DNA from: a virus
IMG/VR virus record: IMGVR_UViG_3300006052_000013
Length of the DNA: 45,764 nt
Direction: 5' to 3' (one strand)
Position 1 is the first letter of the stretch. Each line of letters begins with the position of its first letter. Shown here one piece after another: positions 32,154-45,764 of the stretch. Both the position numbers and the translations under genes were made by a program. The notes beneath the pieces were generated by a model. It searched no databases. It was not told the origin of the DNA and saw only the letters and a list, made by a program, of their open reading frames with translations.

Positions 32154-32156
32154 TCA

Positions 32157-33326: not shown

Positions 33327-33354
33327 CTTACCGTGGGTTTCCCCACGGCCCTCG
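33327..33354 (-). repeat. JH motif copy 13
   Basis: CGAGGGCCGUGGGGAAACCCACGGUAAG. Confidence 0.8.
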
Positions 33355-33391
33355 TATCACTGCGATAATCGCAGAGATATGTTTTGAGTTT

Positions 33392-33604: not shown

Positions 33605-33608
33605 TGAT

Positions 33609-33749
33609 TTATACTCGTGCGCCGCCGGCGATGGCAACTGATGCCACCCCACCCAGAAACGCAAGTTCAATCAGCAACCGATACACGTCATGAGAAACAT
33701 ACCACATGATCGCGTCTTGCAGACGTTTGACCACTTTGTCTCGGGACAT
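33609..33749 (-). CDS. small membrane peptide (46 aa)
   Basis: MSRDKVVKRLQDAIMWYVSHDVYRLLIELAFLGGVASVAIAGGARV; ATG after UAGGAGAGGAACAAU; below the track cutoff. Confidence 0.4.
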   Translation of the reverse strand: MSRDKVVKRLQDAIMWYVSHDVYRLLIELAFLGGVASVAIAGGARV

Positions 33750-33803
33750 ATTGTTCCTCTCCTAATAAGGCTCACTCCGGTTTTCGTGCCCCCGGATGGT
33801 GGC

Positions 33804-33833
33804 CTTACGGGTCACCGGAGTGACCCGCCTTCG
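33804..33833 (-). repeat. JH motif copy 14 (variant, GAAGGC flank)
   Basis: CGAAGGCGGGUCACUCCGGUGACCCGUAAG. Confidence 0.65.
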
Positions 33834-33843
33834 GGGAAACAAC

Positions 33844-34059
33844 TTAGGCGGCCTGGTTCAAATCGTACCGGGCCAAATCATGCTGGTTTGCATGGTGAAC
33901 CTTTTCGGCCCACTTTACGGCGACGGCCGAGGTTAGATAGTTGGTTTCTTCGACCGATCCGTCTGAGTGTTCCAGAATAATACGATCGGCGGCCTCGATG
34001 GCCTTGTTGATTGCTTCTTGACGACGCATATCGCGATTGTTGATACTATCCGTGATCAT
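33844..34059 (-). CDS. small hypothetical protein (71 aa)
   Basis: ATG after UAAGGAGAGGAAA. Confidence 0.5.
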   Translation of the reverse strand: MITDSINNRDMRRQEAINKAIEAADRIILEHSDGSVEETNYLTSAVAVKWAEKVHHANQHDLARYDLNQAA

Positions 34060-34093
34060 TTTCCTCTCCTTACAAGGCTCACTCTATTGTGGC

Positions 34094-34122
34094 CTTACCG
34101 TGGGTTTTCCCCACGGCCCTCG
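34094..34122 (-). repeat. JH motif copy 15
   Basis: CGAGGGCCGUGGGGAAAACCCACGGUAAG; abuts a UAA. Confidence 0.8.
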
Positions 34123-34380
34123 TTATATTTGTAGTGGTTTATTTTCGTTGAGACTGCGAGTAACCGCCGCCCAGGAAAATTCCAGACGCATTTCCCGTAC
34201 CTGGGGCACGTCCAGATTCATATGGGAGTAAACGGAAACTACGCAATAATCTAACATTCGACCAGAAGTAACGGCAGTAAGAATGACCCGTGGGCCAACC
34301 TGGAGTTTGACCATGGGTAATTCTTTTTTGACCTTTTCCTCGGTCCATTCCGGATTGGGTGTCGATTTTGCTTTTTTCAT
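34123..34380 (-). CDS. small hypothetical protein (85 aa)
   Basis: ATGA overlap with the upstream gene. Confidence 0.5.
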   Translation of the reverse strand: MKKAKSTPNPEWTEEKVKKELPMVKLQVGPRVILTAVTSGRMLDYCVVSVYSHMNLDVPQVREMRLEFSWAAVTRSLNENKPLQI

Positions 34381-34601
34381 ACCTTTACCATTCCTCCCCA
34401 AGACCGTTGATAAAATACCCGGAACCCGGCGGTTTGAACATCGATCACCGCGCGACGCCTCGCGGTCTCACCCGGAAAGATGAGGTACTTAAACGGCCCC
34501 GCCTCGGTGGTACCGTACGTAATCGTCGGATGAATCACCCGTCGTATTTCGTCGAATTCGCTCTTTTTGACGGCGAACTCAGGCTGATTTGGTCTTGGCA
34601 T
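34377..34601 (-). CDS. small hypothetical protein (74 aa)
   Basis: Start reset to MPRPNQ after AGGAGGCCCGGU. Confidence 0.5.
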   Translation of the reverse strand: MPRPNQPEFAVKKSEFDEIRRVIHPTITYGTTEAGPFKYLIFPGETARRRAVIDVQTAGFRVFYQRSWGGMVKV

Positions 34602-34797
34602 ACCGGGCCTCCTGAATGGTCCCATTTTCGATGACCTTTTTGATCAGACTAGTTTCAAATCCACTTAACTGGAAGCCAAATGGATTGGGCGCCGAACCCT
34701 TTTGTCCGGTCAGTAACCATGTACGATATGCCCTCGCATACCGCCGTTGATTACAAGGTAATCGATGAATGTAATCATCAATAATTTTGTTTTGCAT
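34579..34797 (-). CDS. small hypothetical protein (72 aa)
   Basis: Start reset to MQNKIIDDY after AGGAGAGGAAU. Confidence 0.5.
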   Translation of the reverse strand: MQNKIIDDYIHRLPCNQRRYARAYRTWLLTGQKGSAPNPFGFQLSGFETSLIKKVIENGTIQEARYAKTKSA

Positions 34798-34864
34798 ATT
34801 CCTCTCCTGGTATGGCAGTGTCGACGGCGGAGGCCGTCGCACTCTGAGGTTTCCCTCTGCCACA
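34798..34864 (-). promoter_or_regulatory. Y-shaped 5'-UTR element copy E
   Basis: GUGUGGCAG-A-GAGGGAAACCUC-A-GAGUGCGACGGCCUCCGCCGUCGACACU-GCCAUAC-C-AGGAGAGGAAU-AUG. Confidence 0.55.
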
Positions 34865-34894
34865 CTTACCGTGGAAGTTATCCCACGGCCCTCG
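34865..34894 (-). repeat. JH motif copy 16
   Basis: CGAGGGCCGUGGGAUAACUUCCACGGUAAG. Confidence 0.8.
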
Positions 34895-34895
34895 T

Positions 34896-35123
34896 TCAAA
34901 TACGTTCTACCAGAAAAGGTTCGCCCAAAAACTGGCCATCCTCGAAGGGCGCCACGTTAAATTCAGAACCACACTTAGAACATTTTATGTTTTGACTTAA
35001 CCCACCCCGTCGTCCTTGAAAAAATGTGTCGTTATTACAGTCTGGACAAACGTGACGGTTGGCAATGGCATCAAAAACTGGATCAACAACGGGTGCTTTT
35101 TTCTTACGAAATGGGTTCCACAT
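34896..35123 (-). CDS. Zn-ribbon protein
   Basis: CPDC...CSKC; ATG after AAAGGAGAACGACAAAG. Confidence 0.55.
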   Translation of the reverse strand: MWNPFRKKKAPVVDPVFDAIANRHVCPDCNNDTFFQGRRGGLSQNIKCSKCGSEFNVAPFEDGQFLGEPFLVERI

Positions 35124-35143
35124 CTTTGTCGTTCTCCTTTGTA

Positions 35144-35172
35144 CTTACCACGGGTTACCCCCGTGGCCCTCG
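35144..35172 (-). repeat. JH motif copy 17
   Basis: CGAGGGCCACGGGGGUAACCCGUGGUAAG; abuts a UAA. Confidence 0.8.
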
Positions 35173-35298
35173 TTAGTGACGCGTTATAAACCATTGAACC
35201 ATCAAGATGACCCCGGTAATCGAAAACCCAACGATTACCGCCCCAATCATCGTGGCGATCCAACCATGTTGAGGCTCCTCTTCGTCATTGTTTTTCAT
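35173..35298 (-). CDS. small membrane peptide (41 aa)
   Basis: MKNNDEEEPQHGWIATMIGAVIVGFSITGVILMVQWFITRH; the start overlaps the upstream gene end. Confidence 0.35.
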   Translation of the reverse strand: MKNNDEEEPQHGWIATMIGAVIVGFSITGVILMVQWFITRH

Positions 35299-35467
35299 CT
35301 CTGGTCGCCTTATGATAGGCGCGAACCCGAACAGAATGAACAAAATTTGACATCGGTTCTTTTTTAGAATCTGTTTGGCGAAAGCAAAATTCATTAGACC
35401 CGGCCCGGCAACGAGGGCAGGGGATTAAAATAATGCGATCCCGACTGGCGGGTTTTACTCTTGGCAT
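35285..35467 (-). CDS. small Zn-binding protein (60 aa)
   Basis: Start reset to MPRVKPAS after AAAGGAGAAAACA; CPRC motif. Confidence 0.5.
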   Translation of the reverse strand: MPRVKPASRDRIILIPCPRCRAGSNEFCFRQTDSKKEPMSNFVHSVRVRAYHKATRDEKQ

Positions 35468-35483
35468 TGTTTTCTCCTTTGTA

Positions 35484-35513
35484 CTTACCGGCCCATGACT
35501 GGGCCGGCCCTCG
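35484..35513 (-). repeat. JH motif copy 18
   Basis: CGAGGGCCGGCCCAGUCAUGGGCCGGUAAG. Confidence 0.8.
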
Positions 35514-35533
35514 TTTACCACATTATGAATTAT

Positions 35534-35824
35534 TCATGCCGCCCGCTTTGGCATGACTTTTAAGACTCCCCGCCGTTTGGCAAGATCGAACAGTTGGTAG
35601 TGAATTGCCTGTTCGACGGGCATCGTCGTCGCCAATTTACCCTGGCGTTTAACCTCGGCGATGACCTCGCCACTCGTGGCCTTTTTGAGTTTCTTAATGG
35701 CCAATACGGTGGCGCCGGCGTGGGTATGGGGTTTTAATTTGGTGATATCCACCTTCGGTTTTGCAACCAGCGCGTAAAACTGTCGTCCCGTTGCAGACTG
35801 CACGGGCTTCTTTTGACTTTTCAT
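35534..35824 (-). CDS. DNA-binding-like protein, paralogue of the globular part of 25754..26164
   Basis: Shared pattern R.(L/F)Y.LVA..K.D......H.GA.V.A..KL...T...VI.EV..QGK..T.M; start reset after AUAGGAGAGAUUCAA. Confidence 0.55.
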   Translation of the reverse strand: MKSQKKPVQSATGRQFYALVAKPKVDITKLKPHTHAGATVLAIKKLKKATSGEVIAEVKRQGKLATTMPVEQAIHYQLFDLAKRRGVLKVMPKRAA

Positions 35825-35884
35825 TTGAATCTCTCCTATCACGAACAAATTTGCTTCCAACGCACGGCCTGGAGGGACGAGTGC

Positions 35885-35911
35885 GTTACCACGGTTTCCC
35901 GTGGCCCTCTG
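35885..35911 (-). repeat. JH motif copy 19
   Basis: CAGAGGGCCACGGGAAACCGUGGUAAC; abuts a UAA. Confidence 0.8.
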
Positions 35912-36178
35912 TTATTGAACAGTAATCGGAATAAACCCCGCCGATCGTAGGCAGGACGCACAACTGACCGAGAAGTGATATATTTGTCTTTTTGGGTCGG
36001 TTTCTTCAGGACAACTCTTGCAACTGATTACGCCCATGGAAGTTTCGGTGGCCGGCTCAAAAAACTCCACGTCGCCGGGGTTACCGACATGTTCACATAC
36101 CAAATAACCTGCTTCCCGAACCTCCGGATATTTTTCACATCCGACGATCGGGTATACATCAATATTATCTACTGTCAT
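35912..36178 (-). CDS. Cys-rich hypothetical protein
   Basis: ATG after UAAAGGAGAAACA. Confidence 0.55.
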   Translation of the reverse strand: MTVDNIDVYPIVGCEKYPEVREAGYLVCEHVGNPGDVEFFEPATETSMGVISCKSCPEETDPKRQIYHFSVSCASCLRSAGFIPITVQ

Positions 36179-36197
36179 TGTTTCTCCTTTATTTGGT

Positions 36198-36228
36198 CGT
36201 AACGCCGGGGATCACCCGGCGCCCTCTG
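36198..36228 (-). repeat. JH motif copy 20 (variant)
   Basis: CAGAGGGCGCCGGGUGAUCCCCGGCGUUACG; the upstream ORF stop UGA lies in the loop. Confidence 0.7.
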
Positions 36229-36388
36229 AATATTCTTCCTCTGTCATCTCTTCATCAAGATCAATAAACTCGACGGTGTATTTCATCCCTTTAGAATATT
36301 TCTCTGGAATTAAAGACTCCGCCAAAAGAACCGCCTGGGTGCGGTTTTCTGCCTCCAGTACAGTTTCGTACTTGACCCGCCATCTCAT
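36212..36388 (-). CDS. small acidic protein (58 aa)
   Basis: MRWRVKYETVLEAENR...EEYSEGAG; ATGA overlap with the KTSC gene; below the track cutoff. Confidence 0.4.
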   Translation of the reverse strand: MRWRVKYETVLEAENRTQAVLLAESLIPEKYSKGMKYTVEFIDLDEEMTEEEYSEGAG

Positions 36389-36627
36389 GCCACCCTCCGG
36401 CCGTTTTCCACCAATTCATACTTGTAACGATATCGAACGAACTGGTAGAAAAAACGACCCTTGGAATGTGCCCGTTGAAAGCGGCCGAAGGTCAGGGGAC
36501 CTACGCCAAAGTAACGATACATGCGGCCGGTCAGGAATCTTACGTACAGAATCCGCCGCAGCACGTCATATCCGATACTTTGGATATTGGTCGAATCTAC
36601 CTCGATCATTCCCACTTGTGTTGTCAT
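36385..36627 (-). CDS. KTSC-domain protein
   Basis: VDSTNIQSIGYD...LYVRFLTGRMYRYFGVGPLTFGRFQRAHSKGRFFYQFVR. Confidence 0.65.
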   Translation of the reverse strand: MTTQVGMIEVDSTNIQSIGYDVLRRILYVRFLTGRMYRYFGVGPLTFGRFQRAHSKGRFFYQFVRYRYKYELVENGRRVA

Positions 36628-36636
36628 ATTTCCCTC

Positions 36637-36665
36637 CTTAAACCCCCTCAGAGGGGGTTCCCTCG
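36637..36665 (-). repeat. JH motif copy 21 (variant)
   Basis: CGAGGGAACCCCCUCUGAGGGGGUUUAAG; the upstream ORF stop UGA lies in the loop. Confidence 0.65.
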
Positions 36666-36884
36666 CCTTTCCATCTTGATCATTCCGTACATAATCATCG
36701 CCAGTCCCATGGCCACGACTTCCTCCGGCCGGGGGTAACTTTCAACATGTTTCACCATGGCCGTGGTGAGCGGTATATTCGGCGACACACCCTTTTTAGC
36801 CAGGCGTGTGCGCAGTTCATTTAGGGAGATGACTCCTAGTTCTTCCAATCTTTTCTTGGTTTTTTCTACATTTTGTCGGTTCAT
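36648..36884 (-). CDS. small hypothetical protein (78 aa)
   Basis: Start reset to MNRQNVEK after ACAAGGAGAGAAUUUCAA. Confidence 0.5.
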   Translation of the reverse strand: MNRQNVEKTKKRLEELGVISLNELRTRLAKKGVSPNIPLTTAMVKHVESYPRPEEVVAMGLAMIMYGMIKMERRGNPL

Positions 36885-36903
36885 TTGAAATTCTCTCCTT
36901 GTA

Positions 36904-36931
36904 CTTACCACGGATTTCTCCGTGGCCCTCG
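36904..36931 (-). repeat. JH motif copy 22
   Basis: CGAGGGCCACGGAGAAAUCCGUGGUAAG. Confidence 0.8.
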
Positions 36932-36953
36932 TTATCAGGGACACTACATCTTG

Positions 36954-37364
36954 TTAAATGGGTTCGATTTTATTGACCTCATCCCATTTCAGGCCCAAAA
37001 CGTGAAAGGCCATCCGGGCGTGATAACCAAAATGGTTATCCCCCGTGGTGACTATCCGTTTGCGGAGTTCCAGCTTATCTGCCGTATCGGAGGTACTAGA
37101 TAAACAACTGGCCTGATTACCGTTCTCCCATAGGCCAAGACGGCCTCGGATTACCTCGGTCGTCGCCCATTTGGCATCATGGTCGCTGATGCCATTTTGC
37201 GAGTTCTGTTCATCCGGACCGCGCAACGCCGAAAGAACCCACCATAGGGCCTTCCCCTGTGATATTTTGTAGAGATTGTCGCCACCCCGGTCTAGTACAT
37301 CCGTCGGTGACGAATTTTTGTTGATTTCTTTGGCAATCTCCCGCAGCAATTCAATCCATTTCAT
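36954..37364 (-). CDS. hypothetical protein (136 aa)
   Basis: ATG after UAGGAGAGGAAUUAAC. Confidence 0.55.
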   Translation of the reverse strand: MKWIELLREIAKEINKNSSPTDVLDRGGDNLYKISQGKALWWVLSALRGPDEQNSQNGISDHDAKWATTEVIRGRLGLWENGNQASCLSSTSDTADKLELRKRIVTTGDNHFGYHARMAFHVLGLKWDEVNKIEPI

Positions 37365-37398
37365 GTTAATTCCTCTCCTATTTAAAGATTTGATTGGT

Positions 37399-37428
37399 CT
37401 TACGGGTCACCGAAGTGACCCACCCTCG
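37399..37428 (-). repeat. JH motif copy 23
   Basis: CGAGGGUGGGUCACUUCGGUGACCCGUAAG; UUCG loop; abuts a UAA. Confidence 0.8.
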
Positions 37429-38991
37429 TTAGTCGTTCTGTTTTTCTTTGTACTCCATAGACCGCACGATGACCCCGAACAACAGGTCGCCCAGGCGGTG
37501 CAACATACCCGGAATCACGATCGCGTTGGGGTTGTGGGAGGTTCCCAGAAGGGCGCCAAACCCAAAGTAACCTTTGTGCAACCGGAGTTCCGGGTCGGCC
37601 AGTCCGGGAGACTTTTGAATTTCTCCGTCGTAGTCGTATTGCATTTCATTGTGCCGGAAACTGCAACCGAAGTTCACCAGATCGTCGGGGCGATTCTCAT
37701 AACCGGTCAGGTTATAAAACTCATCCACTTTGGTTTCGGTCTGGGAACGACCCCGCCGGATCACAAAGTCTTTTATGATCCGGTCCCACCCGGTGACATC
37801 TGACACGATGCGCCCCGTCCGCAGTGCCCGGTAGTAATCGGCCCGGTTCTGGGGAAGATCGCCCTCGTAATCTACCAGGTTCGAGGCAGAAAGATCACGA
37901 AATACCCGGTACTTCGTGTTTTTTTGGATGATGTAATCATCCGGATTAAATACGGAGTCCTTGGGATAGTGGGTCAATACCGAATAATCGGTATCAATTC
38001 CTCGATCCTGGGCATCGTGAAGTTGCCGGAGCATCTCGGCGGTAGAGTTTCCCAGGCCAATAAAGAGAAATTTCTTTCCCTTAATTTGCGGGTAAGTGAG
38101 GCGCTTTTGCCAACGGTTACCGGCGTGGGTGACCTCCGCAGATGTCACCATACGGTGGCGATCCGAGAGGTTTTTCGGTTTTCCCAGTCCCAGGCAGTTG
38201 ATGACGATGGGGTACTCCTTAAAACTTTGACCACGGTCATAAACCCCGTGGGCAAGATTGTTCGGAGTAACCGTGGTGACGTCGTTGGTGATAACGTTTA
38301 ATGAATTGGCGTTCTGGATATTTTGCAGAAAATCCCGTACCTCCGATCCTTCGCCGGGCGCCGGTTCCAGGGCATACTCGCCCAGGACCAATCTACGAGG
38401 ATTGTTTCGACTCCCGCCTTTGATATCTTCCCGTGACCAGATTCCAAATGGTTTGCCCTTTTCATAAAGAGTTACATTTTTAAATCCGGTGCGACTCAGG
38501 CCATATCGTACAATTTGGCCCGCCGCCCCACCACCGATGATGGCAATGGGTGTGTTCCCAATGTCCAAATTGATCACGTTATAAAACGTGGACAAACGTC
38601 CGGCGATACCACTCCCAAAAAAATTATTGGAAGTATTTACCGGAGAGACGGCCAAGGCGCGATCAATTACTTGATTTTGCTCGGGCGTTCCCCGGTAAGT
38701 AACACAGTCGGCGGGTTTCGAGAACAACGAAACTTCACCCAAATAATCCAACACCGGAAATTTTTGGTATATTTCATCTCCGGAAACATTACGCAAGACG
38801 TAACTTCCCAGAAACTTTCCCAGCATTTTCCGACGGCCCATTTCAACAATGGCCTGGTTACTCCAACCTTTATCGCGCGTCATACGTTTTAACACGGATA
38901 TCGGATTGGATAACATTATTGGACTAACGACGTTGTACGACTTCATCGCTTCAACTGCCAAGAACGACTTCAACATTTCTTGGTGATTCAT
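37429..38991 (-). CDS. two-dinucleotide-binding-domain flavoprotein (FAD/NAD(P)-dependent oxidoreductase or monooxygenase-like)
   Basis: IAIIGGGAAGQIVRYGL (GxGxxG) and FLFIGLGNSTAEMLRQL (a second Rossmann motif); start reset to MNHQEML after ACAGGAGAAGAACAA. Confidence 0.7.
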   Translation of the reverse strand: MNHQEMLKSFLAVEAMKSYNVVSPIMLSNPISVLKRMTRDKGWSNQAIVEMGRRKMLGKFLGSYVLRNVSGDEIYQKFPVLDYLGEVSLFSKPADCVTYRGTPEQNQVIDRALAVSPVNTSNNFFGSGIAGRLSTFYNVINLDIGNTPIAIIGGGAAGQIVRYGLSRTGFKNVTLYEKGKPFGIWSREDIKGGSRNNPRRLVLGEYALEPAPGEGSEVRDFLQNIQNANSLNVITNDVTTVTPNNLAHGVYDRGQSFKEYPIVINCLGLGKPKNLSDRHRMVTSAEVTHAGNRWQKRLTYPQIKGKKFLFIGLGNSTAEMLRQLHDAQDRGIDTDYSVLTHYPKDSVFNPDDYIIQKNTKYRVFRDLSASNLVDYEGDLPQNRADYYRALRTGRIVSDVTGWDRIIKDFVIRRGRSQTETKVDEFYNLTGYENRPDDLVNFGCSFRHNEMQYDYDGEIQKSPGLADPELRLHKGYFGFGALLGTSHNPNAIVIPGMLHRLGDLLFGVIVRSMEYKEKQND

Positions 38992-39025
38992 TTGTTCTTC
39001 TCCTGTATAAGCCCGATTCATCGGA

Positions 39026-39055
39026 CTTACACCCCCGTTTCCGGGGATGCCCTCG
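39026..39055 (-). repeat. JH motif copy 24
   Basis: CGAGGGCAUCCCCGGAAACGGGGGUGUAAG; has a U-G pair. Confidence 0.75.
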
Positions 39056-39060
39056 TATCA

Positions 39061-39303
39061 CTAAGGAACAAACTGGTACCAAAGAAGTGTCCCCGGTGGA
39101 TAGGGAACCTCCTCGTGTTTTTGTTTCGTGAACCAGATGGCAACCCGTTCCAGATCGGCGTCTGATGCGAGTGCCTCGGTATACTTGGTCTCACCGTCCG
39201 ATTGCAGATTTTCCTTTACAAAGTTATACTGCCGGATATCTGCGAGGGAGGCCTCGACCAGGGCGGTTTCTTTGTCGCCTTTGATAATCAATCGTATTGA
39301 CAT
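39061..39303 (-). CDS. small hypothetical protein (80 aa)
   Basis: ATG after CGAGAGGAUAAC, 1 nt after the upstream stop. Confidence 0.5.
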   Translation of the reverse strand: MSIRLIIKGDKETALVEASLADIRQYNFVKENLQSDGETKYTEALASDADLERVAIWFTKQKHEEVPYPPGTLLWYQFVP

Positions 39304-39304
39304 G

Positions 39305-39499
39305 TTATCCTCTCGTTTTTACCGGTTTGTGCGGGAAGTGAGAGTGACCGTGAGTACTTTTTGGCCAACTTGCCACCGCCGAACGGTGATGTCCCCTGCT
39401 ACCGCGGGAGGACGCCTCGGCGGGACGCGCAAGCCACGAAAAAAGTAGCAACAGTAACAGCAGCGGCCAAAGTGGCGCCAAATTCCTTACGATGTTCAT
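39305..39499 (-). CDS. small secreted-type His/Arg-rich peptide
   Basis: Signal-like LAPLWPLLLLLLLFSWLARPAEA, then SSRGSRGHHRS..THGHSHFPHKP. Confidence 0.45.
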   Translation of the reverse strand: MNIVRNLAPLWPLLLLLLLFSWLARPAEASSRGSRGHHRSAVASWPKSTHGHSHFPHKPVKTRG

Positions 39500-39565
39500 A
39501 TGTTCCTCTCCTGGTATGGCAAACTGAACGGGTACCGTTCAGTTCTGAGGTTTTCCCTCATTGCC
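39500..39565 (-). promoter_or_regulatory. Y-shaped 5'-UTR element copy F
   Basis: AUGGCAA-U-GAGGGAAAACCUC-A-GAACUGAACGGUACCCGUUCAGUU-UGCCAU-ACC-AGGAGAGGAAC. Confidence 0.6.
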
Positions 39566-39593
39566 ATTACCGGACTTATCGTCCGACCCTCTG
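39566..39593 (-). repeat. JH motif copy 25
   Basis: CAGAGGGUCGGACGAUAAGUCCGGUAAU. Confidence 0.75.
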
Positions 39594-39595
39594 TG

Positions 39596-39928
39596 CTACC
39601 GTGTTAAACCCACGGAAGAGTTTTTATTTAGGTGAAAAGCCCGAAGGCAATCTTCCAAGGTTTGTCTCAAACCATCATAGGCGGCCTTTTTGAGCGTCTC
39701 ATCATACGTCTTGATAAAATCCCGGTACTCATCCTCGGTCCACCCAGTCCAGTTGTCGACCGCCTCGTCAAGAACCCCTTCCATATCTTCCTGGTTGTAG
39801 TTCATACGGTGTGACCAAACGAGAGTTTCAGACATGGCCTGCGTTGCCGAGATGGCCCCGATGAAGGCCTCATCCCGGTCAGTTAATTGATCCAAAATGT
39901 TTACTGTCTCGTCAGTCAATACCGACAT
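39596..39928 (-). CDS. acidic hypothetical protein (110 aa)
   Basis: ATG after AAAAGGAGAACAAU. Confidence 0.55.
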   Translation of the reverse strand: MSVLTDETVNILDQLTDRDEAFIGAISATQAMSETLVWSHRMNYNQEDMEGVLDEAVDNWTGWTEDEYRDFIKTYDETLKKAAYDGLRQTLEDCLRAFHLNKNSSVGLTR

Positions 39929-39956
39929 ATTGTTCTCCTTTTAGTCCATATTTGGA

Positions 39957-39983
39957 CTTACCGCCCAAGGTGGGCGGCCCTCA
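39957..39983 (-). repeat. JH motif copy 26
   Basis: UGAGGGCCGCCCACCUUGGGCGGUAAG. Confidence 0.75.
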
Positions 39984-39987
39984 TTGC

Positions 39988-40113
39988 TTACTGCCCCGGC
40001 CCCGACGGAATCGTCAACGCGGCCTCCAGGATGATGAATACACCGGCCATTGCCGCGATAAACAACGCCGTCCAGATATGTTTACGGAACGTCCGCCAAA
40101 TTTGTTTACGCAT
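39988..40113 (-). CDS. small membrane peptide (41 aa)
   Basis: MRKQIWRTFRKHIWTALFIAAMAGVFIILEAALTIPSGPGQ; the start overlaps the upstream stop; below the track cutoff. Confidence 0.35.
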   Translation of the reverse strand: MRKQIWRTFRKHIWTALFIAAMAGVFIILEAALTIPSGPGQ

Positions 40114-40315
40114 GGGCATTCTCCACTTGTTCGGCGGTTAGATCGAGAAGAAGATCAATTTCTGTGGTGGAAAGAGAAGTGTCATTAATTTCAAGAAAAC
40201 TCTTGAGACCTTCTCGGCCACCCCGGCGATATTCTTCCAGGTCAATTTTCTCGAGATTTTCTGCGACTTCGGGGGTGTACATCTTTGCCAATGCTTCTCG
40301 AAGTGAAAGTTTCAT
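40106..40315 (-). CDS. small hypothetical protein (69 aa)
   Basis: ATG after UAAGGAGAACCA. Confidence 0.5.
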   Translation of the reverse strand: MKLSLREALAKMYTPEVAENLEKIDLEEYRRGGREGLKSFLEINDTSLSTTEIDLLLDLTAEQVENAHA

Positions 40316-40340
40316 TGGTTCTCCTTAGTCCATATTTGGA

Positions 40341-40368
40341 CTTACCACTCCTCACGGAATGGCCCTCG
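40341..40368 (-). repeat. JH motif copy 27
   Basis: CGAGGGCCAUUCCGUGAGGAGUGGUAAG; GUGA loop holds the upstream stop; has a U-G pair. Confidence 0.8.
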
Positions 40369-40633
40369 TAAAAAATCCATTTGTTTTAAGTTTGACCAAC
40401 ATATCGGCCAGAATTGAGTATGACCCGATCCAAATATGTCGACCTGCCCTTTTACCGTTGTCGATGTAACGAATTCCGGCGGTGCCCTCGTCCTGGGAAT
40501 ACCATATAATCATCGCGGTGCGGTCACTTGCCTCGCCACGAAAATATCTGGTATCACCCTCGGATTTTCTGGGATATGTTTGTACAAACCCCAATTCTTT
40601 TAAGATATCGTCGGGGTGATCTTTTTCAGTCAT
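40352..40633 (-). CDS. hypothetical protein (93 aa)
   Basis: Start reset to MTEKDHPDD after CAAAGGAGAUAACG. Confidence 0.5.
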   Translation of the reverse strand: MTEKDHPDDILKELGFVQTYPRKSEGDTRYFRGEASDRTAMIIWYSQDEGTAGIRYIDNGKRAGRHIWIGSYSILADMLVKLKTNGFFTRAIP

Positions 40634-40649
40634 CGTTATCTCCTTTGCA

Positions 40650-40677
40650 CTTACGGCCACCGAAGTGACCGCCCTCG
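40650..40677 (-). repeat. JH motif copy 28
   Basis: CGAGGGCGGUCACUUCGGUGGCCGUAAG; UUCG loop; has a U-G pair. Confidence 0.8.
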
Positions 40678-40679
40678 TA

Positions 40680-40916
40680 CTACTGTTTAAAGTGTTGCCC
40701 CGCGGGGAAGGTGATACCCTTCCCAAACTTCCATTCCATGTTTGTCATATCGCCGCCGTCGGTGATAATGACCCGCACGGTGGTGCCCAGGCGGGCGCCC
40801 ACCGAATGGGTATAGTGTTGGAACGCCTTCACCGCCTCTTCCGGCCCCACAAATCGTCTCACATATTCATAGGCGCCATCCGGAAAAAATTGGCAAACAG
40901 AAAATTCATTTTCCAT
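40680..40916 (-). CDS. small hypothetical protein (78 aa)
   Basis: ATG after ACAGGAGAAAAAC. Confidence 0.55.
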   Translation of the reverse strand: MENEFSVCQFFPDGAYEYVRRFVGPEEAVKAFQHYTHSVGARLGTTVRVIITDGGDMTNMEWKFGKGITFPAGQHFKQ

Positions 40917-40930
40917 GTTTTTCTCCTGTA

Positions 40931-40957
40931 CTTACCGGGTTTTCAACCCGGCCCTCG
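40931..40957 (-). repeat. JH motif copy 29
   Basis: CGAGGGCCGGGUUGAAAACCCGGUAAG. Confidence 0.8.
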
Positions 40958-40958
40958 T

Positions 40959-41234
40959 TTATTTTTCAACTCCCATTCTTCCAAGCAACTGCATGACCGA
41001 CTTTGTCCGAAACGGAGACAACTGCCGGGGTATGGTGTGCATCAGATGCACACCGACCCCGACTTCCAGTAAGGCCGAGTCGATATGATTTAACACCGCC
41101 GATTCTGACTTTGCCTCCCCGGCTCTTTGCAGGGCCGCGATCGCCAATTCCAAAGCATCTCGATAATTGACCCCGGTGGCCCGTTTTGCGGCCTCTTGTT
41201 CTTTGTGAAAGTCGTCGACATTTGTTTCAAACAT
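40959..41234 (-). CDS. hypothetical protein (91 aa)
   Basis: Start reset to MFETNVDD after CAAAGGAGAACAAA. Confidence 0.5.
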   Translation of the reverse strand: MFETNVDDFHKEQEAAKRATGVNYRDALELAIAALQRAGEAKSESAVLNHIDSALLEVGVGVHLMHTIPRQLSPFRTKSVMQLLGRMGVEK

Positions 41235-41250
41235 TTTGTTCTCCTTTGTA

Positions 41251-41278
41251 CTTACGGTCACCGGGGTGACCGCCCTCG
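41251..41278 (-). repeat. JH motif copy 30
   Basis: CGAGGGCGGUCACCCCGGUGACCGUAAG. Confidence 0.8.
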
Positions 41279-41279
41279 T

Positions 41280-41522
41280 TCAATCTTGATGATAACCACC
41301 GTCCGGATTGGGCGGCAGTAACTCATCATAGGGATTACCGTCGAACAACTTTGCCAACGGAATAATCTCAATTTCTTTCCCGACTATGTTCAACGCCGCC
41401 ACGACGGCCACCGACTTTCCGGTGGACTTATCCTGGCAGTCGATTAAACAAAGTCGGTCGTTGTGATTGGCGTTCGACAATGTTCGGAAGTTGGCGATCT
41501 GACCCTTCGAAAGTTTTGGCAT
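41280..41522 (-). CDS. small hypothetical protein (80 aa)
   Basis: ATG after ACAAGGAGCGUAAU. Confidence 0.55.
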   Translation of the reverse strand: MPKLSKGQIANFRTLSNANHNDRLCLIDCQDKSTGKSVAVVAALNIVGKEIEIIPLAKLFDGNPYDELLPPNPDGGYHQD

Positions 41523-41537
41523 ATTACGCTCCTTGTA

Positions 41538-41567
41538 CTTACCGACTCATTTTTGAGTCGGCCCTCG
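41538..41567 (-). repeat. JH motif copy 31
   Basis: CGAGGGCCGACUCAAAAAUGAGUCGGUAAG. Confidence 0.8.
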
Positions 41568-41570
41568 TTT

Positions 41571-41590
41571 TGGCCATCAGGCGGCCCTCG
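41571..41590 (-). repeat. truncated JH 5' half directly upstream of copy 31
   Basis: CGAGGGCCGCCUGAUGGCCA matches the 5' half of copy 33 (CGAGGGCCGCCUGAG...) but lacks the 3' arm and GGUAAG. Confidence 0.6.
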
Positions 41591-41888
41591 TTGCTTTTTT
41601 GAGCTTGGCCCGGATTGCCCCGGTATCCACCCCATCCAACAGTTCCTCGACGGCCTGCGCCCATTCCAAAACATCCTCGGCCAGGTTATAAGCCCGTTTG
41701 TTTTTCGGGGACAGTGCCTCGGGATCATTGTCCAGGGCCGTGGTCTGGTCCTCGGCAATGATACTGAGACTCATCGCCTCACCATGGGCGACTTCGACCG
41801 CATTGATAACCTTTGCCAATTGCGCCTCGATCTTTTGACGAAAGAGACGTTCCGGAAGTACAATCAACTTTTTTCTTTTGTAAGTCAT
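41577..41888 (-). CDS. hypothetical protein (103 aa)
   Basis: Start reset to MTYKRKKL after CCAAGGAGAGGAACAAA; the C-terminus ..TRAA reads into the truncated JH. Confidence 0.5.
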   Translation of the reverse strand: MTYKRKKLIVLPERLFRQKIEAQLAKVINAVEVAHGEAMSLSIIAEDQTTALDNDPEALSPKNKRAYNLAEDVLEWAQAVEELLDGVDTGAIRAKLKKATRAA

Positions 41889-41976
41889 TTTGTTCCTCTC
41901 CTTGGTAAGTGACGGATCGACGTCATCCTTGCAACTGGCCGTTCGAAGGGGACTCAACAAACACACACCCTTACTA

Positions 41977-42003
41977 GGCGCGGGCGAGTGGAATCGAACC
42001 GAC
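41977..42003 (-). other. tRNA 3'-end-like fragment (T-loop plus acceptor 3' strand) inside a 5' UTR
   Basis: RNA sense GGUUCGAUUCCACUCGCCCGCGCC; no matching 5' half, D arm or anticodon arm. Confidence 0.3.
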
Positions 42004-42009
42004 CCGTCA

Positions 42010-42035
42010 CTTACCGCCCGACCGGGCGGCCCTCG
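42010..42035 (-). repeat. JH motif copy 32
   Basis: CGAGGGCCGCCCGGUCGGGCGGUAAG; abuts a UAA. Confidence 0.8.
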
Positions 42036-42239
42036 TTAGTGTTCCAACTCCACCAAACCAACCTCATCATCAACGCAGGTTTCATGACCCTGTTTCCACA
42101 GTTCCTCGGCCAACAATAGAACCTCTCCCCGATTTTGGAAGTTCTTTTTGGTATATTTCACGATCTGCGGAGACAGGCAATCAACATCCGTTGTGAATTT
42201 AATTCGCCCACCTTTTTCCTGTCCTATGTGATATATCAT
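42036..42239 (-). CDS. small hypothetical protein (67 aa)
   Basis: Start reset to MIYHIGQEKGG after AAAGAGAGGAACA. Confidence 0.5.
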   Translation of the reverse strand: MIYHIGQEKGGRIKFTTDVDCLSPQIVKYTKKNFQNRGEVLLLAEELWKQGHETCVDDEVGLVELEH

Positions 42240-42334
42240 TGTTCCTCTCTTTTTGAAGTACCGGGCCGCACGCGCTCGGAGTCTCGTCATGGACTACTCA
42301 ACCATGATCTTGTCGTCTTGGGTGAGACCCGGTA

Positions 42335-42360
42335 CTTACCGCCTTCTCAGGCGGCCCTCG
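42335..42360 (-). repeat. JH motif copy 33
   Basis: CGAGGGCCGCCUGAGAAGGCGGUAAG; the upstream ORF stop UGA lies in the loop. Confidence 0.8.
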
Positions 42361-42637
42361 TAAGGTTCTGGTAAAGTGATTTCAGGTCTTTGCCCCCACC
42401 CAAATCGCGGTAGGGCACGGTATAGTCACCAAACGGTTCACGGGTGAACCGCTTCCGTTCCCACACCTGAAAGTCTTCGGCGACGAACAGGAATTCCAAC
42501 GGATCAGACCGCCGCCGGAGTATCCAGGTATCATCGACGATTCGCAAAATCGGTCTCATATAAATAGACCAACCCTGTTCTTTCAGATCGAGCAACAACT
42601 TGGTGAATTCTTTGCTTTGTTCGTGGTTCTTTTTCAT
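42347..42637 (-). CDS. hypothetical protein (96 aa)
   Basis: Start reset to MKKNHEQSK after AUGGAGAGAAAACA. Confidence 0.5.
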   Translation of the reverse strand: MKKNHEQSKEFTKLLLDLKEQGWSIYMRPILRIVDDTWILRRRSDPLEFLFVAEDFQVWERKRFTREPFGDYTVPYRDLGGGKDLKSLYQNLTRAA

Positions 42638-42652
42638 TGTTTTCTCTCCATA

Positions 42653-42678
42653 CTTACCACCCCGTGGGGTGGCCCTCG
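42653..42678 (-). repeat. JH motif copy 34
   Basis: CGAGGGCCACCCCACGGGGUGGUAAG; abuts a UGA. Confidence 0.8.
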
Positions 42679-42942
42679 TCAACCAATATCGTTATTGAAC
42701 CAGTTAGTAGTGTCCTGGTCTTTTTGGTGAAGTTCAGGAAATGCGTCGACCAGTTTGTCGGCGATGTTTTCGGCGACGTGATGACTCTCACTGGCCACGG
42801 CCGTGTATTCCCGTTCATAATCGGTACTGCCCGGCCCGACGTACTCCCAGGTTCCTTTGTTGGTCTTTTCGAACGTCTGGGCCTCTACTCGTACGGTCGT
42901 GACATAGACGGTGCGTTGTTCTTTTTGCAAAGTTCTTGCCAT
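42679..42942 (-). CDS. hypothetical protein (87 aa)
   Basis: Start reset to MARTLQKEQ after AGGAGAGGAAU. Confidence 0.5.
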   Translation of the reverse strand: MARTLQKEQRTVYVTTVRVEAQTFEKTNKGTWEYVGPGSTDYEREYTAVASESHHVAENIADKLVDAFPELHQKDQDTTNWFNNDIG

Positions 42943-43006
42943 ATTCCTCTCCTGGTACAGCAACAAGAGATGTAATCTCTTGTTGGGATTTCCTCCCTTA
43001 ACTGTA
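42943..43006 (-). promoter_or_regulatory. Y-shaped 5'-UTR element copy G
   Basis: GUACAGU-UAA-GGGAGGAAAUCCC-A-ACAAGAGAUUACAUCUCUUGU-UGCUGUAC-C-AGGAGAGGAAU-AUG. Confidence 0.6.
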
Positions 43007-43034
43007 CTTACCGCGGAGTGATCCGCGGCCCTCG
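43007..43034 (-). repeat. JH motif copy 35
   Basis: CGAGGGCCGCGGAUCACUCCGCGGUAAG. Confidence 0.8.
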
Positions 43035-43035
43035 T

Positions 43036-43443
43036 TCAGGCAATCTTTTTCATATCCGTGAAGTAAACCTCACGGATACCGTCATGGTCATCCGCATCCC
43101 AGAACTCTTTATCAAGTTCTACGATGAACATTCCCCCACGTTCCGCCTCGACGATCTTGCCGACCTGCCGTGGATTATATTCATCCGCGGACAGTTCGAC
43201 TCGATCACCCTCTTTAAAGCCGCCGTAACTTGGCACGGTGGCCTCAACCGGGGGTGTCTTGGGTTTGGGAACGTACTCTTTCCTCAGCTTCATCGCCGAC
43301 CGAATCCGAACGCCGCGGTTGGTCCGAAGATTGGTTCCATTCCAACCTCCGTAGGAGGAAACGGAATCCAATCGGACGGGAACCAGTTTGTTACTGACTT
43401 TGACGACGTACGTCTTACCAACTTCTACCTCATTCTTTTTCAT
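43036..43443 (-). CDS. hypothetical protein (135 aa)
   Basis: ATG after CAAGGAGAGGAACA. Confidence 0.6.
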   Translation of the reverse strand: MKKNEVEVGKTYVVKVSNKLVPVRLDSVSSYGGWNGTNLRTNRGVRIRSAMKLRKEYVPKPKTPPVEATVPSYGGFKEGDRVELSADEYNPRQVGKIVEAERGGMFIVELDKEFWDADDHDGIREVYFTDMKKIA

Positions 43444-43675
43444 TGTTCCTCTCCTTGAAATCCGAAATCACGCCGCGCGGGGAGGGATGGTTAGTTCCGG
43501 GGTCCAGTTGGCCTGGGCGCGGTTAGTTGGCTGATGTTCCGAACCGGGTGGTTGAAAAGGTGATTAACTAGTACTCACCTTTTGACCATCTCGGCCCACT
43601 TAGGCAACGTTGGCCCTGACGGCGAATGGGAAAGACCAGGATAACTCATACATCCCCGCCCGATGTAATCTCGGA

Positions 43676-43703
43676 CTTACCACCTCAGATGAGGTGGCCC
43701 TCG
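43676..43703 (-). repeat. JH motif copy 36
   Basis: CGAGGGCCACCUCAUCUGAGGUGGUAAG; abuts a UAA. Confidence 0.8.
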
Positions 43704-43976
43704 TTAATCAACAACCCAACCATCTTTCACGATGTCCTCGAAACTGCGATAGGCCAACTGTTCCGCGTCCCTTAGATTTTTCAGGGCCTCCGTGTCAAAC
43801 ACATTGACTATGAAAAGAGTGAAGGGAAATTCTTTTGACTCCGCCAGGACGGCATAATCAGGCTTCTGTCCATTACGCCGGACCAGGGGCAGAAAAGGCC
43901 AACGTGGCCAGGAGTTCGGGTCTTTCAGGAAGTTCATCGTGATTTCTTCGAGACTAACCTTAACCAGTTTTTTCAT
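43704..43976 (-). CDS. hypothetical protein (90 aa), first ORF of the array
   Basis: Start reset to MKKLVKVS after CAAGGAGAGGAACACA. Confidence 0.55.
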   Translation of the reverse strand: MKKLVKVSLEEITMNFLKDPNSWPRWPFLPLVRRNGQKPDYAVLAESKEFPFTLFIVNVFDTEALKNLRDAEQLAYRSFEDIVKDGWVVD

Positions 43977-45265
43977 TGTGTTCCTCTCCTTGTTCCCGGT
44001 GCTCTTATCCAGGCTTGGGACTGGCGTGGCTTGGTATGGCAATCTGAGAGGTTTTATTCTCAGATTGGATTTTCCGCCCCACGGCGCATTAACGACTGTA
44101 TTCAGGAGGAGAGTCCCTACTAACAGTCGCCCCTCTGCATGACCTTACGGTCATACACAGCGATTACCATCGGGAGGAGAGTCCCTTGGTAATCTATGGA
44201 CTATACAATTGTCTCAGTAATCTTGGAAACCATCCCAACTCCGATATAAATTGTGCACCGGAGTTATTTAGGCATTCTGTTCCAAAAGGTTTCATCTTTC
44301 TAGTTGATCCGGGGCGCATAACGCCGCTCAACTGTTTGGGAATGTACCGTCCGCGATGGGCACTCTGACATTCTTACTTGGGTCGTAGATCGTTGACAAC
44401 CGTCCGTCTTTCGGTTCGCTTTTCGTGGGGTTTAGCAACCAGTCTAACTGGGATCACCACTTTAAGAACCAGGTTTATCGAAACACCTGATTCTCGCGAC
44501 TCCTACTCGCAAGGCCCTCTGTGTCAATAGATTCTCCCGATTGCCGGGAGTTTGAACCTAGATTTTGCCACTACTCTTTATAACCTACATGCTCAGGACT
44601 TGGGACCTGATTCGGTCGTAGTGGACTTCACGCCTGGCTTTATCGCATTTCGCTTATTCCGGCGTGACCAGATAAAATCGGTACGTCCTATCCGGCGGTC
44701 AGAATACTAATCGCGCCATCCGGGACTTCCCGAAGACCGTGAGGTACGACCTGTGAACTCCACTGTGGGGTTTGGCCCACGCCTTAAATCTTCTAAAGCC
44801 AACTGGGATGTCAACATATTCTTACCTCCCGCCCGCCGTTGGAACCGTTCCAAACTCTTACGAGTTTTCAATGGACTCTCCGTCCCCGGTAGGGTCTGAG
44901 GTTGGCCCGAGTGTCTCTAATCTCGGATTTTTCTGAAGATTGGCAGATATTACAGTAATCGCCCTTCGTGCTTCTGGATTTCTCTTACGATCTCTGATGA
45001 CGGGAGTTTCCTCGGTCCCAGGGTTTAGATTCTCTCGAATCTCACGGGTGTCCGTCAAGTAGAGGTTTAATCGGCCGTTCATTCTGAGAAGGTACTCAGT
45101 TTTTCCCTATTCCCTTTTCCCAGACCGTCCCGTGACAGGCGCTTTGCTGGGTACTCGGACTCAGTTCCGAACTACCGAATCTAGATTTCAATGATCCACA
45201 AGGTCACCAGGTAGGGCTCCTATTGGTCTTCCCTGGTGCCTTAACCATAATCCGTTAGATTGGAC
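43977..45265 (-). ncRNA. candidate large structured non-coding RNA or long leader (~1.3 kb, ORF-free)
   Basis: No SD-preceded ORF in any frame. Dense hairpins, several with GNRA loops, and G-U pairs that work only in the minus sense. Starts just downstream of the promoter at 45272-45300. Confidence 0.35.
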
Positions 45266-45271
45266 ATATCC

Positions 45272-45300
45272 ATTATAACCTAGTTATGCCTTGATGAAAA
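45272..45300 (-). promoter_or_regulatory. sigma70-type promoter candidate (TTTTCA-17-TATAAT)
   Basis: Minus sense TTTTCA TCAAGGCATAACTAGGT TATAAT in an AT-rich region; a perfect -10 hexamer. Confidence 0.55.
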
Positions 45301-45327
45301 AAAATATTTTTTCACTCATTTTTCAAC

Positions 45328-45343
45328 TGTCTAAATTTAGACA
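45328..45343. promoter_or_regulatory. 16-bp perfect palindrome (operator-like) upstream of the promoter
   Basis: TGTCTAAATTTAGACA, about 30 bp upstream of the -35 hexamer. Confidence 0.45.
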
Positions 45344-45405
45344 CACTGAGATACTAAAAATGGGAAGACAGTCTACGGATTTCGGTAGGATCGGATCGGG
45401 CGGTT

Positions 45406-45609
45406 CTACACTGAGGTAGGGTCGAAAGGCCCGGAGTCTTTAGACCCCACTGGGCCTTCGTATAGTTCCGAGTCTGGACATTGCTTATTGGGGCAATACC
45501 AATGTTCTTCCATGTCTTCATAGATATTATCGCCGAAGACGAGTTCCGTGCCACAGATCACGCAAAGGCCCAGGAACCAACTTCGCAATTTCCAGAATAA
45601 GTCTTTCAT
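45406..45609 (-). CDS. small Zn-ribbon protein
   Basis: CVICG...CPNKQC; ATGA overlap with the upstream partial ORF. Confidence 0.5.
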   Translation of the reverse strand: MKDLFWKLRSWFLGLCVICGTELVFGDNIYEDMEEHWYCPNKQCPDSELYEGPVGSKDSGPFDPTSV

Positions 45610-45764
45610 GATTTCTTCTCCAACATCATCCGCGCCTCTTCCACCGCGCGGTGCAAATCATCCCAATCATCCTCCCCAAATATCATCGTGGCGTTGGCCG
45701 AGAGGTCGACCTCCCGTGGCCCCGGCGCGGTTGCCCCGGCGCGGTTGCCCCGGCGCGGTTGCCC
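45606..45764 (-). CDS. partial ORF running off the right edge (start uncertain)
   Basis: The frame is open from the window edge to a TGA overlapping the next ATG. Its 5' part coincides with a 14-bp tandem repeat, so the true start may be the internal MIFGEDDW. Confidence 0.25.
   Translation of the reverse strand, partial: GQPRRGNRAGATAPGPREVDLSANATMIFGEDDWDDLHRAVEEARMMLEKKS
45721..45764. repeat. 14-bp tandem repeat (3+ copies) truncated by the window edge
   Basis: cccggcgcggttgc occurs 3 times and is followed by cc. Confidence 0.8.

Follow-up and report, generated by a model that had tools for sequence, protein, structure and literature searches.

The DNA analysed here is a 45,764-nucleotide (nt) stretch (the window) of a large uncultured phage, IMG/VR record IMGVR_UViG_3300006052_000013, which is carried by contigs of up to 99.5 kb. 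All genes of the window are on the minus strand, and positions 43977-45271 of that strand lie between a promoter-like site and the start codon (43976) of the first gene of an array of small genes. We conclude with moderate confidence that 43977-45271 is the untranslated leader of a phage early operon, and that it is cut from the messenger RNA (mRNA) by a twister ribozyme at its downstream end. The operon of small genes is probably an early one. A preliminary description of this DNA had proposed a large non-coding RNA here. Its placing of the region between promoter and first array gene was confirmed, and its idea of a non-coding, promoter-adjacent and functional-looking RNA held, but that of one large ornate RNA was not supported. 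Neither the twister nor the identity of the junction motifs between the array genes had been recognised. The layout of the locus, with the Shine-Dalgarno (SD) sequence of the first gene, is as follows.

45272 to 45300, minus strand: sigma-70-like promoter TTTTCA-17-TATAAT in an AT-rich tract, predicted from 10 of 12 consensus matches
44091 to 45265, minus strand: predicted 5' cleavage product of ~1.17 kb, ending in P1 with a 2',3'-cyclic phosphate (from the twister model)
44009 to 44139, minus strand: predicted type-P5 twister ribozyme (sub-threshold match to Rfam RF02684, with all core elements)
43977 to 44008, minus strand: linker from P4 to the start codon, with the SD sequence AAGGAGAGGAAC (43980-43991) and CCGGGA, both complementary to anti-SD loops
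43704 to 43976, minus strand: first array gene, 90 amino acids (aa), coding score 0.25-0.33
43672 to 43707, minus strand: first junction motif, after the first array gene (match to the junction model)

In the proposed mechanism, transcription would start from the sigma-70-like promoter on the minus strand, and the last 131 nt before the first gene would fold as a type-P5 twister that cuts between U44091 and A44090. The cut would remove a leader of about 1.17 kb and leave the mRNA with a 5'-hydroxyl end and the hairpins P3 and P4, 114 nt ahead of the first AUG (43976). Through two anti-SD loops upstream of the cut, translation of the first gene would probably be tied to folding or cleavage of the ribozyme, and the transcription unit would run on through the junction-punctuated genes. 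We infer from the sequence that this promoter is used, that the RNA cleaves itself, that translation is coupled to these events and that the upstream part lacks a function. The remaining ~1.1 kb is unique sequence, most likely without a large defined fold, and may represent decayed cassettes or spacer.

Type-P5 twister was the only Rfam family with an E value below 0.01 in the region. The match at 44009-44139 scored 30.0 bits, with an E value of 0.00089 in a 2.2-kb search and of 0.019 in a window-wide search, and did not reach the Rfam gathering score of 37.6 bits. The alignment showed that the score was lowered by a 23-nt P1 loop and a 59-nt P3 insert. Using the twister features given in PMC5408937, we found the following elements in a motif that is open between P4 and P2b.

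44136-44138, minus strand: P2b, GCA
44131-44135, minus strand: 3' side of L1, GAGGG
44123-44130 with 44092-44099, minus strand: P1, GCGACUGU/ACAGUCGU, 8 base pairs (bp) with a 23-nt loop
between 44091 and 44090, minus strand: U^AA, predicted cleavage site
44086-44088, minus strand: P2a, UGC
44084-44085, minus strand: GC of L2, GC(C)
44041-44066, minus strand: 9-bp hairpin enclosed by P3, CGUGG/CCACG
44009-44024, minus strand: P4/L4, CCAG-UCCCAAGC-CUGG

The stems expected of a type-P5 twister were all present, namely P1, P2 (GCA/UGC), P4 and the optional P3. In the cmscan alignment, the conserved bases GAGGG and U^AA of L1 and UCCCAAGC of L4 fit the RF02684 consensus. The predicted pseudoknots have complementary bases at the expected places, with CCC of L4 (44017-44019) against GGG of L1 (44131-44133) for T1, and GC of L4 (44013-44014) against GC of L2 (44084-44085) for T2. 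The pattern of core bases had 1 match in the window and 0 in 100 shuffles. Judged by its sequence and predicted structure, 44009-44139 is a complete type-P5 twister in everything but the curated score, and it was the only complete one found in the window. Self-cleavage would be expected at 44091/44090.

The leader also carries two loops complementary to the ribosome-binding region of the first gene. The repeat AGGGACUCUCCUCC was present in two hairpin loops, one of which is the twister P1 loop and the other of which belongs to the hairpin given below, and is complementary to the ribosome-binding region CCGGGAACAAGGAGAGG.

44162 to 44194, minus strand: hairpin GAUUACCA...UGGUAAUC with the loop AGGGACUCUCCUCCCG (anti-SD), found as repeat D3 and by folding

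The loop AGGGACUCUCCUCCCG is likewise complementary to the ribosome-binding region of the first gene. The calculated duplex energy with the ribosome-binding site was -16.8 kcal/mol for the P1 loop and -18.6 kcal/mol for the loop at 44162-44194; shuffled targets, used for the P1 loop only, gave -11.0 +/- 3.2 kcal/mol. Pairing between linker and loop could form a P5-like helix. Since the anti-SD pairing would correspond to the P5 helix, ribozyme folding and access to the SD sequence would probably be linked, and folding or cleavage is probably coupled to translation of the first gene. The direction of this coupling is not readable from the sequence because both anti-SD loops would remain on the 5' fragment after cleavage.

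The promoter-like site at the other end of the leader was the best of 7 sites in 43000-45764, a number for which shuffles gave 2.1, and the transcript start predicted from the promoter match lies near 45265. It is the promoter named in the preliminary description, and stands as a sequence match of 10/12 at 45300-45272 on the minus strand, which would act as a promoter. The first array gene at the downstream end matched only itself among 5.8 billion clusters.

The twister is related in sequence to the motifs that punctuate the array. Each array gene boundary carried the order stop codon-(A)C/A-GAGGG-GC-rich hairpin-UAA-GU/UG-...-SD-AUG, which is the L1/P1/P2 (5') half of a twister without P4/L4. 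A covariance model (R1), built from 35 copies found by eye and script, detected 36 copies at 27094-43707, all on the minus strand (for example, 43672-43707, 36900-36935 and 32483-32518), and P4/L4 was absent from all 36. GAGGG was invariant among the copies, and UAA was invariant or nearly so. The P1 stem varied with compensatory changes, evidence that is biased by the way the copies were selected. The flanking 2-bp helix, which was not selected for, switched from AC/GU to CA/UG, and 88.6% of its cells were paired. R1 detected no copy in the leader at E values up to 10 and none in the 8-10 kb upstream (contigs L006-L008), which suggests that promoter, leader and twister head the transcription unit. 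On its sequence, the junction loop was judged not to be a K-turn.

Seven of the junctions are long, and are on the minus strand at 39499-39598, 34801-34900, 32061-32159, 30604-30699, 28678-28773, 32424-32520 and 42944-43040. The long junctions add a stem of 7-9 bp (for example, AUGGCAA/UUGCCAU, covarying with GUACAGC/GCUGUAC), which surrounds two hairpins, one conserved (GAGGGGAAACCUC) and one variable, and they end in ACCAGGAGAGGAAC-AUG. All seven aligned with the leader twister over their full length, save for a 42-nt block that is present in the twister alone and includes the 3' strand of P3 and P4/L4.

Three other structures were observed within the array. A second spacer free of open reading frames (ORFs), ~230 nt at 43444-43671 on the minus strand, lies between the first junction and the second gene, and holds a hairpin CCUG-GUCUUUCCCAUUCGCCGU-CAGG with a loop vaguely like twister L4. 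The predicted fold of the segment 42950-43249 (minus strand), which covers the 3' part of the gene 43036-43443 and the long junction after it, is exceptionally stable (-131 kcal/mol; z -8.46 against 200 shuffles). At 32156-32226, the 3' end of the gene just upstream of the junction 32124-32157 carries a tandem repeat with a 32-nt unit (2.2 copies, 97% identical).

The coding potential of 43977-45271 was assessed by a codon-usage log-likelihood, for which 20 genes of the window served as the training set. All six frames scored 0.02 or less, except for one plus-strand window at 0.12, and the adjacent small genes, read in frame, scored 0.15-0.49. No Pfam or PHROG family was found for any of the ten longest stop-to-stop frames (at least 42 aa), and the same was true of the ORFs named in the preliminary description. 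The longest minus-strand frame, a 74-aa ORF, matched only its own gene call among 5.8 billion clusters, and a 69-aa frame containing a 36-codon ORF had 0 matches among 1.84 billion representatives. The blastx search of the stretch against the ORFs of the phage itself gave no frame-shifted similarity or paralogue (E above 2). The proposal that the region is non-coding was thus supported by codon usage, Pfam, PHROGs, the large databases and blastx, and the suggested check for a decayed protein gene, by blastx against the phage ORFs, Pfam, PHROGs and two large-database searches, revealed none.

The statement that no ORF in the region is preceded by an SD sequence was not strictly correct. One minus-strand ORF has such a sequence:

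44707 to 44830, minus strand: small ORF of 36 codons (AUG 44817-44815, stop 44707) with GGGAGG at 44825-44830; codon usage not coding-like

GGGAGG stands 7 nt before AUG 44817, and the ORF may be a leader peptide or a chance occurrence. On the plus strand, the TTG ORF 44186-44368 has GGAGGAGAG 5 nt upstream; no family was found for it in Pfam or PHROGs, and the large protein databases were not searched for it. The description of the ORFs of at least 60 aa as lacking ribosome-binding sites was right for the 74-aa ORF, which has no SD sequence, and not strictly so for 44186-44368. We consider it very unlikely that 43977-45271 encodes one or more small proteins missed by standard criteria, be it the 36-aa product, the 74-aa product (45082..44858) or that of plus-strand 44186-44368. 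The two SD-like sequences favour such products, and the 74-aa ORF was annotated by one gene caller in a contig of the Joint Genome Institute (JGI). However, codon usage was at most 0.02 across these ORFs save for the plus-strand window at 0.12, no Pfam or PHROG family and no homologue outside the phage was found, and the 74-aa ORF lacks an SD sequence. The 'SD' of the plus-strand ORF is the complement of the duplicated anti-SD loop, and all other genes are on the minus strand. Jointly, these ORFs cover less than one third of the region.

A new large structured non-coding RNA, comprising the whole ~1.2-kb transcript or the 5' product, was also considered, and we regard it as decidedly unlikely. 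Such an RNA would fit a long, unique and ORF-free stretch in an otherwise densely coding operon, situated downstream of a promoter, and twister cleavage would give it a defined 3' end. However, Rfam offered no family for it at any threshold used. At the gathering score, no family was found in the region, the whole window or the upstream contig. GOLLD, ROOL, HEARO, OLE, raiA, group I and II introns, RNase P and transfer-messenger RNA (tmRNA) gave no match at E values up to 10, with the sole exception of a 9.4-bit chance match to nuclear RNase P; the cmscan check proposed in the preliminary description for GOLLD, ROOL, HEARO, OLE, introns, tmRNA and RNase P was thus negative. Matches to snoRNA, miRNA, nuclear RNase P and glmS-like families were low-scoring chance matches. 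Among them, the glmS-ribozyme-like match at 14546-14724 (minus strand), inside an ORF, scored 24.6 bits against a cut-off of 37 and is probably due to chance. ARAGORN found no transfer RNA (tRNA) or tmRNA. The leader resembles GOLLD, ROOL, HEARO and OLE in size range (about 0.5-1.3 kb) and in its lack of an ORF, and GOLLD and ROOL in phage association; unlike them, it matches no covariance model, lacks both homologues and a conserved multi-stem architecture, and is not enriched in helices.

The hairpin density of the leader was compared with that of shuffled and coding sequences. The six helices listed in the preliminary description were all present, a few bases at most from the coordinates given there, but the claim that the region is packed with local helices was not supported. 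The minus-sense leader has 142, 58 and 23 stems of at least 5, 6 and 7 bp, respectively; dinucleotide shuffles of it gave 143.7, 51.8 and 18.8 (z -0.1 to +0.85), and ten equal-length coding chunks of the phage gave 156-205, 60-87 and 16-36. The leader count was thus at chance and, in comparison with coding DNA, below all chunks for 5-bp stems and mostly below for longer stems.

Folding energy was clearly beyond that of shuffles only in the downstream half. The z score was -3.97 for 43977-44640 on the minus strand and -1.53 on the plus strand, a difference in favour of a structured RNA, and for the upstream half (44600-45265) it was -1.97 on the minus strand and -0.65 on the plus strand, which speaks against one. 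The block 43977-44210, whose minimum-energy structure includes P1 and P3, had a z score of -4.90, and the block 44440-44700, outside the twister, one of -2.77. Likeness to the large ornate RNAs of the GOLLD/ROOL kind was therefore not supported, given the absent Rfam match, the chance hairpin density, an upstream ~600 nt at shuffle level and the lack of a homologue in the collections searched. Two further structures lie in the upstream part.

44628 to 44667, minus strand: hairpin UCACGCC...GGCGUGA, directly 5' of a twister-like fragment; one of the six helices listed earlier
45105 to 45131, minus strand: G-quadruplex motif GGGACGGUCUGGGAAAAGGGAAUAGGG; both strands of the window (45.7 kb) contain no other (G3N1-7)x4 match

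The G-quadruplex motif, ~135-160 nt past the predicted transcript start, is a point for a large RNA, and together with the fold at 44440-44700 it means that the ~1.1 kb may have a function of its own. CsrA-type GGA/GUAC motifs were not enriched above the genome background, AGGGA excepted, and the enrichment of AGGGA was due to the repeated loop and a G-rich tract.

Relatives of the region were looked for in several collections. Look-ups of exact proteins gave 13 contigs with the region; these, the only copies found, were all 100% identical and offered no variation for a covariation analysis. No DNA match was found among GenBank phages, where the DNA polymerase I of the closest cultured phage is 29% identical. 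Protein and pattern scans of IMG/VR were empty or gave chance matches. The scan of Genome Taxonomy Database (GTDB) genomes matched only a Thermomicrobiales coding sequence, and in the JGI metagenomes the junction pattern gave only single, mostly hairpin-less chance matches among the matches listed; the IMG/VR, GTDB and JGI scans used flanking proteins and the junction motif as queries rather than the leader sequence. With no homologue in GenBank phages and no related contig among the IMG/VR, GTDB and JGI matches listed, these searches speak against a large RNA. A fragment encoding a 95%-identical flavin (FAD) protein was rejected as a relative, being the same phage with a chimeric end.

Two further pieces of the leader resemble parts of a twister.

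44563 to 44624, minus strand: degenerate twister fragment (partial match to Rfam Twister-P5 at 44594-44632, 22.9 bits)
44490 to 44522, minus strand: pseudo-junction ACAGAGGG-C-CUUGCGA-GUAGGAG-UCGCGAG-AAU, like twister L1/P1 with AAU in place of UAA

The fragment at 44563-44624 keeps a 7-bp P2 (CCACUAC/GUAGUGG), L2 GACC and P4/L4 CAGG-UCCCAAGU-CCUG. It has neither the GAGGG/UAA internal loop of a complete core nor a P1 at the base of P2, and was not counted as a twister because L1 and P1 are absent. Its T2 could still pair, since a C-to-U change in L4 is matched by a G-to-A change in L2. The pseudo-junction sits forty bases downstream of this second twister match, and shows that the degenerate junction motif noted previously is real (ACAGAGGG, hairpin and AAU), and with R1 it gave no match at an E value of up to 10. 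Assembly of the second match (44594-44632) and AGAGGG (44515-44520) into a complete type-P1 or type-P3 twister was rejected because the strand order needs a break at the cleavage site. On the minus strand, GUCCCAAG occurs three times; two of the copies are in the leader, and the third is a chance occurrence within a gene.

These pieces bear on the possibility that the region consists of the remains of two or three decayed gene cassettes, still transcribed as a passive leader, which we think unlikely while granting it some weight. Twister-like remnants (44563-44624, 44490-44522 and a weaker ACGAAGGG near 44963) occur at a spacing of 390-440 nt, and cassettes of the array span 290-670 nt. This cassette-like spacing of twister debris suggests decayed cassettes, and the live twister is built like the long junctions; a single remnant of SD plus AUG, that of the 36-codon ORF, points the same way. 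However, there was no residual protein signal in support: neither codon bias nor frame-shifted similarity to phage proteins (blastx E above 2) or to database entries was left, and R1 found nothing in the leader. In addition, it is rare for a phage to retain a kilobase of dead DNA, and the sampled copies were all identical.

The same pieces allow a further arrangement, to which we attach hardly any probability, namely a naturally split twister in which the L4 module of the leader docks, in trans or by long-range contacts in cis, on the L1 of L4-less junctions. Its basis is that the 36 junctions have L1, P1 and a covarying 2-bp P2 but no P4/L4, and that the leader piece 44563-44624 lacks L1 and has P2, L2, P4/L4 and a compensated T2. 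Self-cleavage would also place a second L4 module at the new 5' end of the mRNA. If this were true, a single 'cofactor' RNA encoded in the leader would be responsible for cutting the polycistronic message at each gene boundary, and the system would be a trans-acting natural twister.

That the region acts at the level of DNA instead of RNA, for example as a replication origin, packaging site or genome end, is highly improbable. In its favour are a non-coding kilobase beside the AT-rich tract 45280-45360 and a 14-nt tandem repeat (GCCCCGGCGCGGTT x3.3) at 45719-45764, at the window end, where related contigs stop matching. However, no iterons or significant repeats were found inside the region, the cumulative GC skew was unchanged, and strand-specific RNA features (the twister and the anti-SD loops) explain the downstream part. 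At 45748-45764, contigs that are otherwise 100% identical start or stop matching, and the genes upstream are partly different (L006-L008); this breakpoint may reflect recombination or assembly.

Several observations weigh against an untranslated leader removed by a twister. The promoter is a consensus match only, and since the genes upstream share the strand, read-through transcription is possible. The twister is below the Rfam cut-off (30.0 against 37.6), and cleavage is predicted only. The perfect P4 and the compensated T2 of the fragment at 44563-44624 are odd for junk, and the fold of the downstream half, including 44440-44700 (z -2.77), is somewhat more stable than chance would give. Processing would also need far less than a 1.2-kb leader, and the comparable leader in the phage contig L176 has ~270 nt.

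L176 (IMG/VR UViG_3300025141_000488) came from a scan of IMG/VR for twisters with a closed P1, which found phage contigs with full twister arrays. At 5672-11422 it has 16 Type-P5 twisters of 40-57 bits, above the gathering score, and in the part that was read each twister is located after a small-ORF stop codon and ahead of the following SD-AUG. Its array starts with a TTGACA-17-TAAGTT site and a leader of ~270 nt, followed by the first twister; this short analogous leader also argues against a large RNA in the present phage. Two more contigs, L166 (8440-10979) and L171, have seven and four twisters, respectively, those of L166 above the Rfam cut-off. All three contigs are unrelated to the present phage, and R1 recognises the L1/P1 halves of their twisters. 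The twisters of such arrays (RF02684, clan CL00120; L176) share with the one described here the core P2b-GAGGG-P1-U^AA-P2a-GC-(P3)-P4, the loop UCCCAAGC and T1/T2, and those of L176 have the same placement, after a stop codon or leader and directly ahead of SD and AUG. The twister of the present phage differs in its sub-threshold score, its 23-nt P1 loop with the anti-SD sequence and its 59-nt P3 domain. Its leader is 1.17 kb long in comparison with ~270 nt in L176, and there is one complete twister, with the other 36 junctions lacking P4/L4.

The early leader of phage T7 has one or more strong host-type promoters, several hundred untranslated bases and the RNase III site R0.3 before the first early gene. 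It is similar to the present locus in that promoter, untranslated leader and processing site precede the first gene, with more processing sites between genes. In T7 the cut is made by a host protein, RNase III, on long duplexes, whereas here a self-cleaving RNA is predicted.

Ribozymes that process 5' ends offer another comparison. HDV-like, hammerhead and twister ribozymes are present in the 5' untranslated regions of retrotransposons and RNA viruses (PMC6765202; PMC7761336; bioRxiv 10.1101/2024.05.16.594327), and processing of polycistronic mRNAs by bacterial and phage twisters and hammerheads has been suggested (PMC6765202). The clustering of ribozymes with each other and near phage genes is known and unexplained (PMC10085705). 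As in those cases, a small self-cleaving ribozyme just ahead of an ORF would detach the upstream RNA and define the 5' end, and might determine whether the downstream message can be translated. The earlier cases concern eukaryotic elements and RNA viruses, together with suggestions made for bacteria, whereas the present one is a predicted ribozyme in a DNA phage operon with an SD-dependent start.

The other genes of the window were also surveyed. They include those for DNA polymerase I, a UvrD-type helicase, an AEP primase, an SNF2 helicase, an Rnl1-like RNA ligase, a C5 methylase and a sigma factor. A calcineurin-like metallophosphoesterase (20914-21519, minus strand) is encoded near the Rnl1-type RNA ligase (22670-23818, minus strand), and the two could heal and seal RNA with 2',3'-cyclic-phosphate and 5'-OH ends. 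Such ends are the products of twister cleavage or of host anticodon nucleases, and no kinase was identified. At the beginning of the RNA-ligase gene region, an 86-nt segment (22650-22735) has an inverted, 95%-identical copy ~30 kb off in the upstream part of the genome (3493-3577 of L006). An 851-aa protein (18149-20704, minus strand) has a shoulder domain of the major vault protein (PF11978, E 1.5e-26) and a vault repeat; a vault-type domain is unusual in a phage. In the middle of the array, at 37429-39021 on the minus strand, an FAD/NAD(P)-binding protein is encoded, the nearest homologues of which have ~44% identity; those with a named source include proteins labelled as coming from Patescibacteria (CPR) genomes, which may hint at the host or at the origin of this gene.

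For the role of twisters in bacteria and phages, the reviews only suggest mRNA processing (PMC6765202, PMC10085705). The sequence ahead of the twister (1.1 kb) is of minor importance unless relatives or transcripts show it to be conserved or stable. The locus as a whole is a clean test case, with an apparently intact twister that separates a long leader from the first operon gene, a twister loop complementary to the ribosome-binding site of that gene, and 36 L4-less derivatives at the gene boundaries. The layout in which twisters punctuate genes is worth a study of its own, and comparison with the phages that have full twisters (L176, L166) might reveal if it is cleavage that matters at gene junctions or just the L1/P1 structure.

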